Source: Escherichia coli (GTDB lineage Bacteria > Pseudomonadota > Gammaproteobacteria > Enterobacterales > Enterobacteriaceae). From it: a DNA stretch of 64,000 bases. The position numbers and the translations under genes are program-made. This document shows positions 27,085 to 46,209 of the stretch, one piece after another. A model generated the notes under the pieces. It was not told the origin of the DNA. It did not search any database and worked only from the letters and a program-made list of their open reading frames with translations. The stretch lies in NCBI RefSeq assembly GCF_050920415.1, contig NZ_CP169309.1, one strand, 5' to 3'. Position 1 is the first letter of the stretch. Every line of letters starts with the position of its first letter.

Positions 27085-27366
27085 TACCGTTGTCTCTCTT
27101 CCAGGTTTACTCCTGATAGAAAGTCATCGGCATTTGACGGTAATTACTTACGACTAAAAACCTCTTTGCGTCACATTTTTACAACAATTATTGCAGAGAA
27201 GATTAATGCCATTGGATTGAAGAAAGTGAGGAATGGTTAAACTGGCTAACCCGAATGACGAAAAATTCTGGAAAACAGCACGCTATTTCGTGAAGTGATT
27301 ATTTTCGTCCCTAAGGAAACCTCATAGGATGCCTGCGGGTGCCTGTACTGCCCCCCTTTTTACGCT

Positions 27367-27710: not shown

Positions 27711-27774
27711 CTTCCGATGTAGGCCCGTATTCTTCGCCTGTACCACGGGTCGGTTTTAGTACAGGCGTTTTCTT
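27711..27774 (+). ncRNA. rydC: Hfq-dependent sRNA RydC
   Basis: cttccgatgtaggcccgtattcttcgcctgtaccacgggtcggttttagtacaggcgttttc matches the remembered RydC sequence with terminal hairpin and U-run; in the ydcA-cybB intergenic region convergent with cybB, as in K-12. Confidence 0.75.
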
Positions 27775-27784
27775 TAAATATCCT

Positions 27785-28315
27785 TCAGGAACGTTTACGC
27801 GGCATCATGCGTAGAAGTGTGTTGTCCTTCCAGAAATAGTGGTGTGCCAGTGCAGCCGCAGCGTGCAACCCGATGACAAAATATCCCAGATTCGCCAGCG
27901 TCTCATGCCACCACTTTAAGCTATCAACCCGTTCGAAATTGGCCTCTGCTGCGTAAGGCATTGTCATACCAAACGCAAACCATGGGTTGCCCCGGTTATA
28001 CATCATCACCAAACCAATCACTGGTAGCGCAATAAACAGGAGATAAATCACCAAATGTCCCAAATGTGCCAGTCCCGTCATCATCGGTTTTGGTTTAGGT
28101 ACAATCGGCGGAGTTGGGTATTTAAGCCTTAACAAAAGACGAACAACCATCAGCACGAGAATTGAGATGCCACAGGAAACATGAATCATGTTGATGAGCG
28201 GCCGATCGCTACGTGGGAAGAAACCACGAAACTCCATTGCGCAATACGCTGCGATAACCAGCAAAAAGACCAGCCAGTGAATGCCGATTTGTAACCTTGA
28301 ATATTTACTTTCCAT
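27785..28315 (-). CDS. cybB: Cytochrome b561 CybB
   Basis: ORF 27785..28351 (-); CybB from internal Met MESKYSRLQIGIHWLVFLLVIAAYCAMEF... (176 aa). Confidence 0.92.
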   Translation of the reverse strand: MESKYSRLQIGIHWLVFLLVIAAYCAMEFRGFFPRSDRPLINMIHVSCGISILVLMVVRLLLRLKYPTPPIVPKPKPMMTGLAHLGHLVIYLLFIALPVIGLVMMYNRGNPWFAFGMTMPYAAEANFERVDSLKWWHETLANLGYFVIGLHAAAALAHHYFWKDNTLLRMMPRKRS

Positions 28316-28503
28316 AACATTTCCTGCTTTAACATAATTTTCCGTTAACATAACGAGCTTTTCTTAAAATTTCATTAAATTTTGTTCACCCGTTTTCAGT
28401 ACGTTACGTTTCACGGCAAGAATGTAGATTGCCCATCCCGCCATCCTGGTCTAAGCCTGGAAAGGATCAATTTTCATCCGAACGTTCCTGACAGGAGAAG
28501 ACC

Positions 28504-29505
28504 ATGAGTAAAGTTGGTATTAACGGTTTTGGTCGTATCGGTCGACTGGTGTTGCGTCGATTACTTGAAGTCAAAAGCAACATAGACATTGTCGCTATTA
28601 ATGATCTCACTTCCCCAAAAATTCTCGCCTACCTGCTGAAACATGATTCAAACTACGGACCGTTCCCCTGGAGCGTTGATTTTACGGAAGATTCACTTAT
28701 CGTTGATGGAAAAAGTATCGCGGTTTACGCCGAAAAAGAGGCTAAAAATATTCCATGGAAAGCGAAAGGCGCAGAAATCATTGTCGAATGTACTGGCTTT
28801 TATACCTCCGCCGAGAAATCGCAGGCGCACCTTGATGCTGGTGCGAAGAAGGTGTTGATTTCCGCCCCTGCCGGTGAAATGAAAACCATCGTTTATAACG
28901 TCAATGACGACACACTGGATGGCAACGACACCATTGTTTCCGTGGCGTCATGCACCACTAACTGTCTTGCACCGATGGCCAAAGCCTTGCACGACAGTTT
29001 CGGAATAGAAGTCGGCACGATGACGACCATTCATGCCTATACTGGCACCCAGTCACTGGTGGATGGCCCGCGAGGTAAAGATCTACGCGCTTCACGTGCA
29101 GCGGCAGAAAATATCATTCCCCACACTACAGGCGCGGCAAAAGCCATTGGTCTGGTGATCCCAGAACTGAGCGGCAAACTGAAAGGTCATGCGCAACGCG
29201 TACCCGTGAAAACAGGTTCGGTGACTGAACTGGTGTCTATTCTTGGAAAAAAAGTGACTGCCGAAGAGGTGAACAACGCGCTTAAAAACGCGACAAACAA
29301 TAACGAGTCATTTGGTTATACCGATGAAGAAATAGTCTCTTCTGATATCATTGGCAGCCATTTCGGGTCGGTGTTTGATGCCACGCAAACCGAAATTACC
29401 GCCGTGGGCGATTTACAGCTGGTGAAAACGGTCGCCTGGTATGATAACGAATATGGCTTCGTCACGCAGCTTATTCGCACCCTCGAAAAATTCGCTAAAC
29501 TCTGA
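28504..29505 (+). CDS. gapC: Glyceraldehyde-3-phosphate dehydrogenase C (GapC), apparently intact 333-aa reading frame
   Basis: ORF 28504..29505 (+); NGFGRIGR Rossmann motif, catalytic SCTTNCLAP; uninterrupted. Confidence 0.9.
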
Positions 29506-29546: not shown

Positions 29547-30986
29547 TTACGACTGTAAATAAACCACCTGGGTCTGCAGGTATTCATGCAAGCCATGTTT
29601 GCCATCTGCGCCGCCAATACCGGATTTACGCCATCCGGCGTGGAATCCTTGCATAGCTTCGAAGTTTTCACGGTTGATGTAAGTTTCACCAAACTTCAGC
29701 CCTTTAATAGCTTTCATCGCGACGTTCAGATTTTGGGTATAGAGTGATGAGGTCAGGCCGTAATCACTGTCATTAGCCATTGCGATAGCCTCTTCCAGCG
29801 TGTCAAATGCGACCACTGGCAGCACCGGGCCAAAGGTTTCCTCGTGCATAATCGACATTTCCTGACGAACATCCAGCAGCAAAGTCGGCGGATAATAATA
29901 TCCTTTCCCCTCAACCGCTTTGCCCCCCAACGCTACCCTCGCCCCCTCTTCGACTGCGCGCGCCACTTTTTGCTCGACCCTTTCCAGCGCCGCGGCGTTA
30001 ATCAACGGCCCCATCGCAATGTCGTTGCGTTCAGCGGGGTTACCAAATTGAACCGCCTGCATCGCTTCACCCAGCCGATTGACGAAATGATCATAAATGC
30101 CTTTCTGTACATAAACACGTTCTGCACAGTTACACACTTGCCCACTATTAATGACGCGTGAATCAACGATGGCTTTGACTGCCAGTTCAAGATCGGCATC
30201 GTCCATTACGATAGCTGGTGCTTTACCACCCAATTCCAGACACACTTTTGTGATATTTTTTGCTGCAGTCGCCATGATCTTTTCACCTGCAGAGACGCTG
30301 CCTGTCATACTGACCATTGCGACCTTTGGGTTACCCGCCAGTTCTTGCCCAACGGTTTCACCACGCCCCAGCACAAGGTTAAACACACCGCGTGGAAGGC
30401 CTATTTCATCGACAATTTTGGCAAAAGCAATCGCATTGTTTGGCGTAAATTCACTGGGTTTAATGACGATAGTATTACCGGTCAAAAGAGCGGGAGCCAT
30501 TTTGCGGGCAATGAGGAAGAACGGGAAGTTCCACGGCAGAATGCCGGTAGTCACGCCAAGCGCACGTTTAAAGAGAAGAATATTTTCTCCTGGACGATCG
30601 CTTTGAATAATCTCACCTTCGTAACGCCGCGCCCACTCTGCCATGTAATCGATATAATCCGCAGTAAATGCTACCTCAACTTCGGCCAGCTGCTGGAGCT
30701 TGCCCCCTTCTTCAACAATCAGCGCACTGATTTCACTGGCGCGTTCGCGGATCCCGACGGCGATTTTGCGTAACCAACTGGCGCGTTCAATGGCAGGCAA
30801 TGCTTCCCATTCTGGCTGCGCGCGCTCTGCGGCGTCGATTGCTTTGCGAGCATCTTCAGCCTGACCATCGGGAATGCGGGAAATCACCGCCTCTGTTGCG
30901 GGGTTAACCACATCAATCCATGCGTCTCCACGCCAGGTAACAAACTGTCCATCTATATACATAGGATGTTGAACGGGTACTGACAT
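29547..30986 (-). CDS. aldA: Lactaldehyde dehydrogenase AldA
   Basis: ORF 29547..30986 (-), 479 aa; aldehyde dehydrogenase family, MSVPVQHPMYIDGQFVTW... Confidence 0.95.
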   Translation of the reverse strand: MSVPVQHPMYIDGQFVTWRGDAWIDVVNPATEAVISRIPDGQAEDARKAIDAAERAQPEWEALPAIERASWLRKIAVGIRERASEISALIVEEGGKLQQLAEVEVAFTADYIDYMAEWARRYEGEIIQSDRPGENILLFKRALGVTTGILPWNFPFFLIARKMAPALLTGNTIVIKPSEFTPNNAIAFAKIVDEIGLPRGVFNLVLGRGETVGQELAGNPKVAMVSMTGSVSAGEKIMATAAKNITKVCLELGGKAPAIVMDDADLELAVKAIVDSRVINSGQVCNCAERVYVQKGIYDHFVNRLGEAMQAVQFGNPAERNDIAMGPLINAAALERVEQKVARAVEEGARVALGGKAVEGKGYYYPPTLLLDVRQEMSIMHEETFGPVLPVVAFDTLEEAIAMANDSDYGLTSSLYTQNLNVAMKAIKGLKFGETYINRENFEAMQGFHAGWRKSGIGGADGKHGLHEYLQTQVVYLQS

Positions 30987-31982: not shown

Positions 31983-32395
31983 GGTTCCTCCTTATCGTTC
32001 CCTTAAGAATACTGCGTGAGATAATAATGAGAAGCGGAGCACTCTGAAAGGAAGATGATGCTTTTTCTATCGCGCCATCGCGAACCAGACACTGGTTTTA
32101 GTCATACTGTATTTGCGGAGAAACTGTTGATAAAACATCAATAACATAATGTTCTATCATTTTTAAATGACAGATAATCTGGTGTGATATTTATATAATA
32201 TTCATTCTTATATTTCTCAATCAAGGGAACATTTGGTATCCAGTGTATCATCCTCATCAACCAGATGTGTTATAAGCACTTTACCTCGTTAATTTTAATA
32301 TTACGAGTTACAGGACAAAACATCACTCGCATTTAGTCCAGTAACTCGTAGTAGCCAGAGTATACATACCCATTGATAAAATGCCTGGCAATAAA

Positions 32396-33253
32396 TTAAC
32401 CCGCTATACTCGCACTCGTCGGCCCTGTTTCAATACTACCCACAATATCAATAATGTGACCCCAGAACATATCATCATCGTTATAATATAATGAATAATC
32501 TCCATTATAATCCATAGCCAACTCAACAAGATTTATTCTGCTAACAAACATATCTTCTGTAATTTCTTCATCTTCTTCATCTTGAAGCCAGTCATTGGCC
32601 AATTCAGTTAATTGTTCTGCAGCATATTGGCGGAACTCCTGATCTTTTTGTTGCATATGACTACATAAAAATCGCAGATTTTCAAAAGCCTGTTGCCAGG
32701 TATATCTATCATTCTTATCTACTTCCATAGATACAGAAATATTCTGATCATTCCATTTCACTTCCCCGCTAAAACAGGAGTAGTCTTTATTAAGCACGAA
32801 AGTCCCCAATTGCTGATCTTCAACAACAACTGGTTTGCGATATTCTTTCTGAATATTGAGCAGTTCCTCACACTGAACATGACTTTCAAGAACCTCAAGA
32901 ACATAAAACCGATTATAAAACTCGGCTAACTTTCCTTCCGGCACGGTCCTGTCAATCAAATCTCGTACTCTCAGGCGATATATACCACCAGACTGCATAT
33001 TAAACGGCCACGCACAGCCTTGAGTTTTCTCATTTTCTTCTGTTATCAACCAGTTGAGTCGTCCATCTCCAACGTGAATTTCTCCCGTAGTCAGACTCTT
33101 CCAGGCGAGTAAGTGTTCAACCGCTGTCCAGTAATTATCACCGTTACTCTTACCCGCGCCACCGCCAGTATCACTAAGAAGAACGATAATTTCTTCTTCT
33201 GTATCTTTAAATGTATGACTAAATTTTTTGTATTCTTCAGAATTTAAGTCCAT
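32396..33253 (-). CDS. Hypothetical acidic cytoplasmic protein (285 aa), no recognisable family; strain-variable islet gene
   Basis: ORF 32396..33253 (-); AT-rich coding sequence in an AT-rich 1.4-kb segment between ydcF and hrpA; no TM or signal peptide; Asp/Glu-rich C-terminal half; not recalled in K-12 at this site. Confidence 0.75.
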   Translation of the reverse strand: MDLNSEEYKKFSHTFKDTEEEIIVLLSDTGGGAGKSNGDNYWTAVEHLLAWKSLTTGEIHVGDGRLNWLITEENEKTQGCAWPFNMQSGGIYRLRVRDLIDRTVPEGKLAEFYNRFYVLEVLESHVQCEELLNIQKEYRKPVVVEDQQLGTFVLNKDYSCFSGEVKWNDQNISVSMEVDKNDRYTWQQAFENLRFLCSHMQQKDQEFRQYAAEQLTELANDWLQDEEDEEITEDMFVSRINLVELAMDYNGDYSLYYNDDDMFWGHIIDIVGSIETGPTSASIAG

Positions 33254-33402
33254 TTTTGCCCCGGTGAAAAATAAATTTGATCAATAACATTGAGTGCCGC
33301 AGTAAAGAATGTGTTATCGATAATTCAAAAATGACTGCGTACGCCACAAGCCTACTCCCCACGCGACGTAAGGAGTACCGCCCTTGCTATTTTTCAGAAT
33401 TC

Positions 33403-42978: not shown

Positions 42979-45285
42979 TCAATACAACTCATCAAGTTTT
43001 CTCATCGCTTGTTCCCGTATTGCGCGCGTCTTACCGTTAAGCGCCAGCTGGCGAACTAAATCCAGTTCAGGGTTAACAAGCTCTAACGCCAGCAAAGGAT
43101 CACGTTTCAGCCTCGCCTTTAATACATCAACTGGAAAACGGGGATTATTCATCGCCACAATCCACCACTCGGGATCAATTTCTGCCGCCAGTGCCGCAGG
43201 GGGGGTGTGGCGGTTGCTAAGTGCGCCGAACTTGAAAAATGTGAGATTGCTTTTCGCCAGTGTACTCCACCATATACGATCCGGTTGTTTTGCCAGTACA
43301 TCCAGTTGTGCTAACGCATCGGGGTCGAGTGCATAATAAACACGTAACGCTTCGTTAACCTGCGCACGGGAGCTGTTTTCCTGCCTCAGAAAAAACTTCG
43401 CCCAAATATCATTGCGTGGCGTGTTTTTCTGTAATTCTTTGAGAACAACAGCGGGTAAATTATCCCAACTAATTAATGCACTCTCTAAAAAGTCCCAGTC
43501 GTCCGAACGTATCAGAGAGGTGGCATTTAATAGCATCTGGTCATCAACTTCACCGTAGCTGATAAGCTCAGACAAAATCATATCAGCGCTGGTTTCATAT
43601 GCATCTGAATCTGCTTTGGGATTATTTTTCCGATGCGATAAAGCACGTTGCCAAATTTTTTGTTTCATCGACGTGCTCAGATACTGATTTTTCGCCAGAT
43701 TACTCCACCCCTCAGGATCGTTGAAACGTGTCAATAATCGTTGTAGAGCAGCGTCAGAGTGAATTACCTGCATATCCCGACAGCAAAAGTAGGCAGGGGA
43801 TTTTTTCTCCATCCTTTTAACAAAATTAAACTGTAAGTTATCTGGCAATGCTAAAAATAACACACGTATTAGATCATCGTCATTCTCGAATTTTTGGTAT
43901 AAATATACTGCAACTTTGTCACTCTCTTGTGGCGTCATCCGCAACAATTGACCATGGTGTTTCATCTCTGCCAGCTTTGACGCTAAGCTTGTGACAACAT
44001 CGTTTGATGAATCGTTCGCCAACTGCATTGCCTGATTGTAGGTGAGTTGTCCTCCAGCACCGACCTGACGAATAGAGGGATCATCACTGCGGATATAGCC
44101 ATCAATAATGGATTCGGGCAATAACCACGCATCTTTATAAAGCTCCTGAATGATCATATCCCAATCTCTTTTCGCCAGAGTCATGACGATATCCAGAGGG
44201 AGATTTTCACGTAGCGCAAGATTCAACGGACCGACACCATCAGGTAGATGACTCATTCGCGTCATTATTTCGACAGAGAGCGGTTCACGGTCGAGCAACC
44301 CCAGAACAACAGGCTGGTAACCCAATTGCTGATCGGTCAACTCCAGAATCTCATTGTCAGGCATATATCTCGCCATACTTGCAATCGTTTGTCCATCATT
44401 GCTATTAATAAGTTGTTTGCGTAGGTTAGCTGAAATTCCTTTAATCCTTGGGAGAGTTCGCATTATGGCAAGATCAAATGTCGCAATATCTCGTCCTTCA
44501 AATGCAGCAACGTTGCCTTCATCCAGCATTTGCAATTCCTGCACTAACTCAGGAGAAGGCTTAGGGCGAAACAGCGCTTCTTTTTTCATCAGATTACAGA
44601 TATTCCCTGCCATGCGAATATTGCTTCGCTTAAAAATTTCTTTCAGAGCATCTTCATCATTTATTAGACCCCAATAATATGCATCAGGATTTATTATCAT
44701 CAGCGCTTTTTTGACATTTTCAGTGTCATTTTTATCACTCGCACGGACCATGAATTCACTATTTGTCGAAGACGCAACAACAGGTGCAATTATGTCATTG
44801 ATAAATATCCCACGCGCATTAATACTCCCCTTAATCGTAGACGGATTATCGTAATATGAATCGATAAATACCAGTCCACTTGCATTTATCGAACCGGTAA
44901 TTAACAGTGGTGAATCTGTAACTATATTCGTTGCCGTCACGTTACCGAGAATAACCCATGGATTAGAAAGAGAGAAAGTGGAAATATTACCTTTGACTGT
45001 CAAATTGCCAAGAACAATCAATTTTTGATTACTCTCTATATTACCTTCTACCACTAAATCGCCACGATGCACTTTCCAGTCCGATGCAGATAAACCGAAG
45101 GGGACAAGATTCACGCTACTGTTGATAGCTTGTTCAACTTGCTGTTTATCTTCAGCGGTAGCCGCAGATAAAAATGGATTAATATCAACTGCATTTGCAA
45201 CACATCGAAGTTCCGCCTGTACTGGAAGACTCAGGATAAACAGGGGAAGTAAACGTATCCAGCCGCAAATCCTGGCCTTAAACAT
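42979..45285 (-). CDS. ydbD: Large uncharacterised secreted protein YdbD (about 768 aa)
   Basis: ORF 42979..45291 (-); signal peptide ...LLPLFILSLPVQAEL; start at first or second Met. Confidence 0.85.
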   Translation of the reverse strand: MFKARICGWIRLLPLFILSLPVQAELRCVANAVDINPFLSAATAEDKQQVEQAINSSVNLVPFGLSASDWKVHRGDLVVEGNIESNQKLIVLGNLTVKGNISTFSLSNPWVILGNVTATNIVTDSPLLITGSINASGLVFIDSYYDNPSTIKGSINARGIFINDIIAPVVASSTNSEFMVRASDKNDTENVKKALMIINPDAYYWGLINDEDALKEIFKRSNIRMAGNICNLMKKEALFRPKPSPELVQELQMLDEGNVAAFEGRDIATFDLAIMRTLPRIKGISANLRKQLINSNDGQTIASMARYMPDNEILELTDQQLGYQPVVLGLLDREPLSVEIMTRMSHLPDGVGPLNLALRENLPLDIVMTLAKRDWDMIIQELYKDAWLLPESIIDGYIRSDDPSIRQVGAGGQLTYNQAMQLANDSSNDVVTSLASKLAEMKHHGQLLRMTPQESDKVAVYLYQKFENDDDLIRVLFLALPDNLQFNFVKRMEKKSPAYFCCRDMQVIHSDAALQRLLTRFNDPEGWSNLAKNQYLSTSMKQKIWQRALSHRKNNPKADSDAYETSADMILSELISYGEVDDQMLLNATSLIRSDDWDFLESALISWDNLPAVVLKELQKNTPRNDIWAKFFLRQENSSRAQVNEALRVYYALDPDALAQLDVLAKQPDRIWWSTLAKSNLTFFKFGALSNRHTPPAALAAEIDPEWWIVAMNNPRFPVDVLKARLKRDPLLALELVNPELDLVRQLALNGKTRAIREQAMRKLDELY

Positions 45286-45348: not shown

Positions 45349-46209
45349 TTATTCTCGCGAAATACCATCCAACGTAGACAACACGTCCGCAGAAAGATGC
45401 AATTTTTCTGCGGCCATATTCTCCCGTAAATGAGCAACAGAAGACGTTCCTGGGATCAGCAAAATATTCGGTGAACGCTGTAAAAGCCACGCCAGCGCCA
45501 CCTGCATTGGTGTCGCATTAAGGCTCGTAGCAACATCGGAAAGCGTGGAGGATTGCAGTGGCGTAAAGCCCCCCAGCGGGAAGAACGGCACGTAGGCAAT
45601 GCCATCATGAGCCAAAGCATCAATCATTGCGTCATCAGCACGATGAGCAATGTTGTATTCATTCTGCACACAGACGATTTCGGTAATCTTACGCGCCTCT
45701 GCAACCTGCGTCGGTGTTACATTGCTCAGGCCAATATGTTTTACCAGGCCTTGTTGTTGCATCTCTGCCAGCACGGTCAGGCTGGCTTCAATCGATCCTT
45801 CTGCTGGGCCATGACCATCCCCCATCATAACGCGCAGGTTAACCACATCCAGTACGTCCAGTCCGAGATTACGTAGATTATCGTGTACCGCTTTTTGCAA
45901 CTCTGCCGGAGAAAATGCGGGCAACCAGGAGGCGTCCTCTCCACGCCGCGCCCCAATTTTAGTAACAATGGTCAGGTCGTCAGAGTAAGGATAAAGCGCT
46001 TCGCGGATAATCTGATTGGTGACGTGCGGACCATAAAAGTCACTGGTATCAATGTGATTGACGCCCAATGCTAGCGCCTCGCGCAGAACGGTTATAGCGA
46101 CGTGGCGATCTCTGGGCGGGCCGAAAACCCCAGGACCTGCCAGTTGCATCGCGCCATAACCAAGACGGTTAACGGATTTTGTACCGAGAGTAAATGTGTT
46201 GCTGCTCAT
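45349..46209 (-). CDS. ydbC: Aldo-keto reductase YdbC
   Basis: ORF 45349..46209 (-), 286 aa; AKR family (...LGYGAMQLAG...). Confidence 0.9.
   Translation of the reverse strand: MSSNTFTLGTKSVNRLGYGAMQLAGPGVFGPPRDRHVAITVLREALALGVNHIDTSDFYGPHVTNQIIREALYPYSDDLTIVTKIGARRGEDASWLPAFSPAELQKAVHDNLRNLGLDVLDVVNLRVMMGDGHGPAEGSIEASLTVLAEMQQQGLVKHIGLSNVTPTQVAEARKITEIVCVQNEYNIAHRADDAMIDALAHDGIAYVPFFPLGGFTPLQSSTLSDVATSLNATPMQVALAWLLQRSPNILLIPGTSSVAHLRENMAAEKLHLSADVLSTLDGISRE

Follow-up and report, generated by a model that had tools for sequence, protein, structure and literature searches.

The gapC reading frame in the window (here the whole 64,000-nucleotide stretch of E. coli contig NZ_CP169309.1 that was analysed) is very probably an intact wild-type enterobacterial gapC gene, which encodes an active type I GAPDH accessory to GapA. 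This finding is correct but ordinary. Intact gapC outside K-12 is already known, because the gene has been described since 1998 and is represented by a curated UniProt entry, a qPCR marker, and crystal structures with kinetics; it is ordinary because most E. coli keep gapC whole and the broken copy of K-12 represents the minority state. Thus, a preliminary description of this DNA, made from the sequence alone, was right in presenting the gapC of this strain as intact, but this does not set the strain apart, and an intact gapC was reported in 1998 as a property of E. coli beyond K-12. The point that goes beyond the literature consulted concerns the K-12 null allele: it represents a natural haplotype that is common, being found in about 21% of complete E. 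coli genomes.

Re-translation of gapC gave one open reading frame without internal stop codons or frameshifts, in agreement with the 333-residue protein claimed in the preliminary description. The predicted product is identical to RefSeq WP_000048645.1, and at the nucleotide level the ORF is 100% identical to the gap genes annotated as intact in strains N96 and MFDS1022581. Pfam analysis revealed two full-length domains, Gp_dh_N (PF00044, residues 3-102, E = 9e-36) and Gp_dh_C (PF02800, residues 155-313, E = 4e-58), and these E-values exclude a chance ORF at this position. The gene order cybB-gapC-aldA is common to the window, K-12, N96, and MFDS1022581, which places the window gene at the position of a gapC orthologue. 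The features of the locus are collected in Table 1.

Table 1. Coordinates of gapC, its functional codons, and its flanking features in the window
Feature	Position	Strand	Basis or remark
gapC CDS, 333 aa, 1002 nt, ATG to TGA	28504..29505	+	ORF list, re-translation
Putative Shine-Dalgarno sequence AGGAG	28493..28497	+	6 nt 5' of the gapC ATG, sequence reading
cybB-gapC divergent intergenic region, presumed gapC promoter site	28316..28503	.	K-12 sigma-S ChIP-seq peak
GC-rich hairpin, 9-bp stem GGCGGAGGG/CCUCCGCCU, 6-nt loop	29513..29536	.	between convergent gapC and aldA
Catalytic Cys150 codon (TGC)	28951..28953	+	sequence reading
Catalytic His177 codon (CAT)	29032..29034	+	sequence reading
Codon 39, AAA (Lys); TAA in the K-12 null haplotype	28618..28620	+	alignment
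Run of seven A (A7), gene nt 744-750, codons 248-250; shortened to A6 with a -1 frameshift in the K-12 null haplotype	29247..29253	+	alignment
cybB (cytochrome b561), divergent upstream neighbour	27785..28315	-	synteny-defining
aldA (aldehyde dehydrogenase A), convergent downstream neighbour	29547..30986	-	synteny-defining

Published work provides several indications that gapC is transcribed. A sigma-S ChIP-seq peak has been located in the gapC/cybB intergenic region of K-12 (PMC4447067), and CsrA-responsive gapC transcripts were detected in an EPEC transcriptome. A consensus scan for a gapC promoter in the window yielded a single sigma-70-like match (28309-28338, 9 of 12 positions), with 1.7 matches expected by chance. 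The mechanical ORF of cybB starts at an ATG at 28351 (188 aa) and the RefSeq start lies at 28315 (176 aa); the longer form, if real, would reduce the intergenic region to 152 nt. Downstream of gapC, the hairpin listed in Table 1 has a calculated RNA folding energy of -20.3 kcal/mol (z = -3.6 against shuffled sequences) and likely functions as a bidirectional intrinsic terminator for gapC and aldA. It was not picked up by the terminator consensus scan because its T-tail consists of four Ts instead of five. An Rfam scan of the window identified the small RNAs RydC (27711-27774, + strand, 90.5 bits), located between ydcA and cybB, and MicC (61565-61685, - strand, 124 bits), located between nifJ/ydbK and ompN, and no other RNA families above the gathering score.

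The gapC product matches the type I GAPDH model TIGR01534 (EC 1.2.1.12, NCBIfam) over all of its positions (1-330 of 330) with 446.2 bits, exceeding the curated equivalog cut-off of 367.2 bits. Assignment to the GapA type (NF011954/PRK15425) was rejected, with 302 bits against a cut-off of 662 and 47% sequence identity to K-12 GapA. Since the protein shares just this level of identity with GapA and 40% with Epd, gapC represents a distinct third paralogue. The preliminary description had pointed to an NAD-binding motif and a SCTTNCLAP segment, and both are present, at residues 5-14 and 149-157, respectively. The former includes the Rossmann GxGxxG motif (Gly8-Phe-Gly10-Arg-Ile-Gly13), which is invariant, together with the NAD-preferring acidic residue Asp34, in an alignment of orthologues from five genera with GapA. 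The latter contains Cys150, and the second catalytic residue, His177, is located within a TTIHAYT sequence. A loss of either catalytic residue was looked for, and both were found to be kept in the window protein and invariant in the alignment. The same is true for the phosphate-site residues Thr180, Thr182, Arg198, and Arg232 (EcGAPDH1 numbering). The product also retains Arg11, Ile12, Lys78, Ser120, and Arg195; the cited NAD+-binding, catalytic, and phosphate-site residues are invariant across orthologues and GapA except for Lys78, which is replaced in GapA. As judged from these sequence features, the gapC product is predicted to be an NAD+-dependent type I GAPDH, not an erythrose-4-phosphate dehydrogenase (E4PDH).

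A structure search identified about 14 PDB entries (7C5F, 7C5H, 7C5P, 7C7K, and active-site mutants), which are identical to the gapC product at 330 of 333 residues. The crystallised enzyme, EcGAPDH1 (PMC8615399), is a product of gapC and shares all catalytic, NAD-binding, and phosphate-site residues with the window protein. The two proteins differ at three positions, with Ile29, Asn262, and Asn265 of the window protein replaced by Val, Gln, and Thr in EcGAPDH1 (I29V, N262Q, N265T), and all three positions are variable among orthologues. Strains LD39-1, elppa6, and HUSEC2011 carry the common intact allele, which encodes exactly the crystallised sequence. EcGAPDH1 has been shown to convert G3P (Km 0.73 mM) using NAD+, and it was crystallised with these two ligands; its activity was abolished by the C150A substitution and reduced ~38,000-fold by C150S and ~8,000-fold by H177A (PMC8615399). 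In its structures, NAD+ is contacted by Arg11, Ile12, Asp34, Lys78, and Ser120 and phosphate by Thr180, Thr182, and Arg232, with Arg198 also named as a phosphate-site residue (PMC8615399). The assays were run at pH 10 and 50 °C (PMC8615399), conditions that say little about the physiological role of the enzyme. Because of its near-identity to an active enzyme, with differences only at variable positions, there is a strong case that the window allele is functional, and we infer that it is both active and expressed.

GapC would act as a homotetrameric, NAD+-dependent, phosphorylating type I GAPDH. In the proposed mechanism, Cys150 would attack glyceraldehyde-3-phosphate to produce a hemithioacetal, from which, with His177 acting as the base, a hydride would be transferred to NAD+ held by the Rossmann motif and Asp34. 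Inorganic phosphate would then release 1,3-bisphosphoglycerate from the resulting thioacyl enzyme. According to published accounts, such an enzyme would be expressed mainly under stress, in stationary phase, or in fresh water and would be accessory to the housekeeping GapA.

The preliminary description was also correct in stating that K-12 carries a split gapC pseudogene: in K-12 MG1655, the syntenic site is occupied by gapC (b4493, formerly gapC_1/gapC_2), annotated as a pseudogene of 1001 nt. Like the window gene, it lies between cybB and aldA, and the two share 96.0% nucleotide identity with 40 differing positions, nearly all of which are third codon positions. Alignment of the two genes placed the K-12 lesions at nt 115, where an AAA>TAA change introduces a stop at codon 39 (K39*), and at nt 744-750, where one A has been lost from the run of seven. 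K-12 carries an additional C52G change (R18G), which affects an arginine invariant across orthologues and GapA. None of these three K-12 features is present in the window gene. The nearest intact allele, that of strain LD39-1, differs from K-12 gapC by exactly these three changes and by no synonymous substitution, and therefore the inactivation is recent relative to the divergence of the alleles. The window gene shares 93.8-100% nucleotide identity with 18 other E. coli alleles.

The population data are based on exact 59-mer counts and on inspection of 18 loci in addition to K-12. Of 5426 complete E. coli genomes, 5417 contain the gapC locus. Codon 39 was found as AAA in 3221 genomes and as TAA in 1152, R18G was found in 1148, and the A6 frameshift on the K-12 flank in at least 1045. 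Thus, R18G, K39*, and the A deletion form one null haplotype present in ~1150 of 5426 genomes (~21%), many of them from humans, livestock, and river water. It was observed in natural isolates among the inspected loci (L004-L006, L018, and L019), and the 60 listed exact carriers include more than 30 independent natural isolates. Isolates from river water (Japan), human stool (Pakistan), pig faeces (Belgium), and human urine (China) have a gapC that is base-for-base identical to that of MG1655, and on these grounds laboratory domestication was rejected as the origin of the K-12 lesions. The presence of the null haplotype in many natural isolates indicates that it predates the domestication of K-12, and its natural status is essentially demonstrated.

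For the frequency of intact genes, an evenly spaced sample of 40 matches was drawn from the gapC locus search of complete genomes. All seven inspected matches with an unchanged span were intact, and six of eight inspected matches with an altered span length were disrupted. Extrapolated from this sample, gapC is intact in roughly 75-80% of E. coli genomes; intactness is the ancestral and majority state, and K-12 carries a derived null haplotype, which is in the minority. Nine intact alleles had a mean dS of 0.105 and a mean dN of 0.0037, giving a dN/dS ratio of 0.035, which reveals clear purifying selection on GapC. Several lesions lie outside the null haplotype or have been added to it. Strain 201609 has a 1-nt deletion with a frameshift at nt 418 on a highly divergent allele, and in strain SCPM-O-B-7615 an IS1A element occupies the expected place of the 3' portion of gapC and of the aldA 3' end (locus L011, 2651-4828), so that aldA is truncated and gapC is reduced to a stub of 198 nt, an independent route to gapC loss. 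Strain ET490 contains a further deletion on the K-12 haplotype. The allele of strain 201609 (from urine; locus L010, 351-1351) has 56-63 differences relative to every other sampled allele and is 93.8% identical to the window gene; recombination may have imported it, or it may stem from a deep lineage. Since the null haplotype occurs in about a fifth of genomes and independent lesions are also found, gapC is dispensable in at least some lineages.

A match of at least 99% to the gapC stretch of the window was found in only 17 genomes. We rejected the idea of an exceptionally divergent gapC in this strain: identity to K-12 amounts to 94.6-96.4% across the entire trg-ydcF neighbourhood, which makes the divergence a regional feature instead of one peculiar to gapC. 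Over 21 kb, the window shows 100% identity to E. coli MFDS1022581 (NZ_CP169399.1), a strain from animal-source food in Korea, and in that record the gapC ORF is annotated as intact and as a type I GAPDH (WP_000048645.1).

Comparison of the window with K-12 and N96 also revealed several differences outside gapC. The hokB/mokB/sokB type I toxin-antitoxin module and yncP are missing at ~27345-27354, between trg and ydcA; they are present in K-12, which has ~345 nt extra at this site, and in every carrier of the gapC null haplotype that was sampled. Between ydcF and hrpA, the window has an insertion of ~1.35 kb (32053-33402) that is found neither in K-12 nor in N96, an otherwise nearly identical strain. 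The insertion contains an ORF (32396-33253, - strand) for a very acidic 285-aa protein with DUF7021 (E = 3e-31) and DUF2262 (E = 1e-44) domains, which adjoins a 66-nt gene remnant annotated in MFDS1022581. The ydbD gene (DUF2773 bactofilin; 42979-45285, - strand) is intact in the window and has an internal stop in the close relative N96. In the window, pdxI (45349-46209) is directly followed by an intact gene for an autotransporter of 1845 aa (46417-51954, - strand), whereas N96 has the paa (phenylacetate) operon after pdxI and its match to the window stops at 46426. The K-12 counterpart of the autotransporter gene, ydbA, is an IS-disrupted pseudogene, which would make this, after gapC, another gene that is broken in K-12 and whole in the window.

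Three other readings of the gapC data were considered. Given that the K-12 frameshift sits in a homopolymer, a typical site of long-read errors, the apparent intactness could be an assembly or sequencing artefact, for instance a miscalled A7 run hiding a frameshift. This is extremely improbable and was rejected: the same 1002 nt are found base-for-base in the two independent assemblies of N96 and MFDS1022581, an in-frame A7 run occurs in every intact allele sampled, and the K-12 stop codon is absent from the window gene as well. It is nearly as improbable that gapC encodes an enzyme of another specificity, such as an Epd-like E4PDH, a GAPDH coupled to ArsJ in arsenate detoxification, or an NADP-dependent enzyme of gluconeogenesis. 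The modest identity of this paralogue to GapA would allow such a reading, and the preliminary description, which proposed a functional third GAPDH/E4PDH paralogue, had left the choice between the two activities open. However, the protein scored just 277 and 280 bits with the E4PDH models TIGR01532 and NF010058 (cut-offs 530 and 539) and 307 bits with the ArsJ-associated GAPDH model NF033735 (cut-off 450), so that both assignments were rejected. No arsJ gene adjoins gapC, its neighbours being cybB and aldA. Asp34 argues against a preference for NADP, and the 99%-identical EcGAPDH1 uses G3P and NAD+ (PMC8615399). Thus, the GAPDH part of the earlier proposal holds, being consistent with the TIGR01534 score, the near-identity to an active enzyme, and the low dN/dS ratio, whereas the E4PDH part does not.

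A somewhat less remote, but still improbable, reading is that the ORF is intact yet cryptic, that is, expressed seldom or not at all, redundant with gapA, and heading for loss as in K-12. It would be compatible with the frequency of the null haplotype, with the independent lesions in strains 201609 and SCPM-O-B-7615, and with the failure of the consensus scan to find a promoter above chance. The selection data point the other way, since a dN/dS of 0.035 at a dS of ~0.1 reflects long-term purifying selection in the intact lineages, and orthologues have been kept across several genera. Moreover, gapC transcripts and promoter activity have been published, and the separation of the null haplotype from an intact allele by a mere three changes means that the loss is recent and lineage-restricted. 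We therefore retain the reading of gapC as an intact gene for an active accessory GAPDH.

These results have consequences for both annotation and the interpretation of gapC loss. The pseudogene annotations of K-12 should not be transferred to other strains. According to the author's later summary of the 1998 work (PMID 9622357), environmental isolates have an intact gapC, which is expressed in fresh water, and lesions had accumulated in laboratory strains. The natural null haplotype contradicts, or at least modifies, the laboratory-strain part of this account. We propose only tentatively, and with considerable doubt, that gapC is a natural functional polymorphism in E. coli as opposed to a gene broken only by laboratory domestication. 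The null haplotype makes gapC a convenient natural knock-out for studying the role of a second GAPDH outside the gut. If GapC helps cells to survive outside the host, which the fresh-water expression reported in 1998 suggests, its loss could mark an ecological shift at the lineage level, although this ecological meaning is speculation.

Beyond EcGAPDH1 and the K-12 pseudogene, the nearest known counterparts of the window protein are GapC of O157:H7, GapA, and Epd. GapC of E. coli O157:H7 (UniProt P58072) is also an intact 333-aa orthologue and has been annotated as a protein for more than two decades; gapC has been used as an E. coli qPCR marker in a clinical study citing this entry and Hidalgo et al. 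1996 (PMC10614358). The sampled O157:H7 allele (strain Z1825) is intact and differs from the window by I29V, N132K, N262Q, and N265T and by 45 nt. Orthologues with 87-96% identity are found in E. albertii, Citrobacter, Trabulsiella, the Klebsiella oxytoca group, and Enterobacter. The housekeeping GAPDH GapA shares the fold, the SCTTNCLAP segment, and the reaction with the gapC product, but besides its lower identity it is encoded at another locus and is presumably regulated in another way. Epd (GapB), the E4PDH of E. coli, shares the superfamily and the domain architecture with the gapC product.
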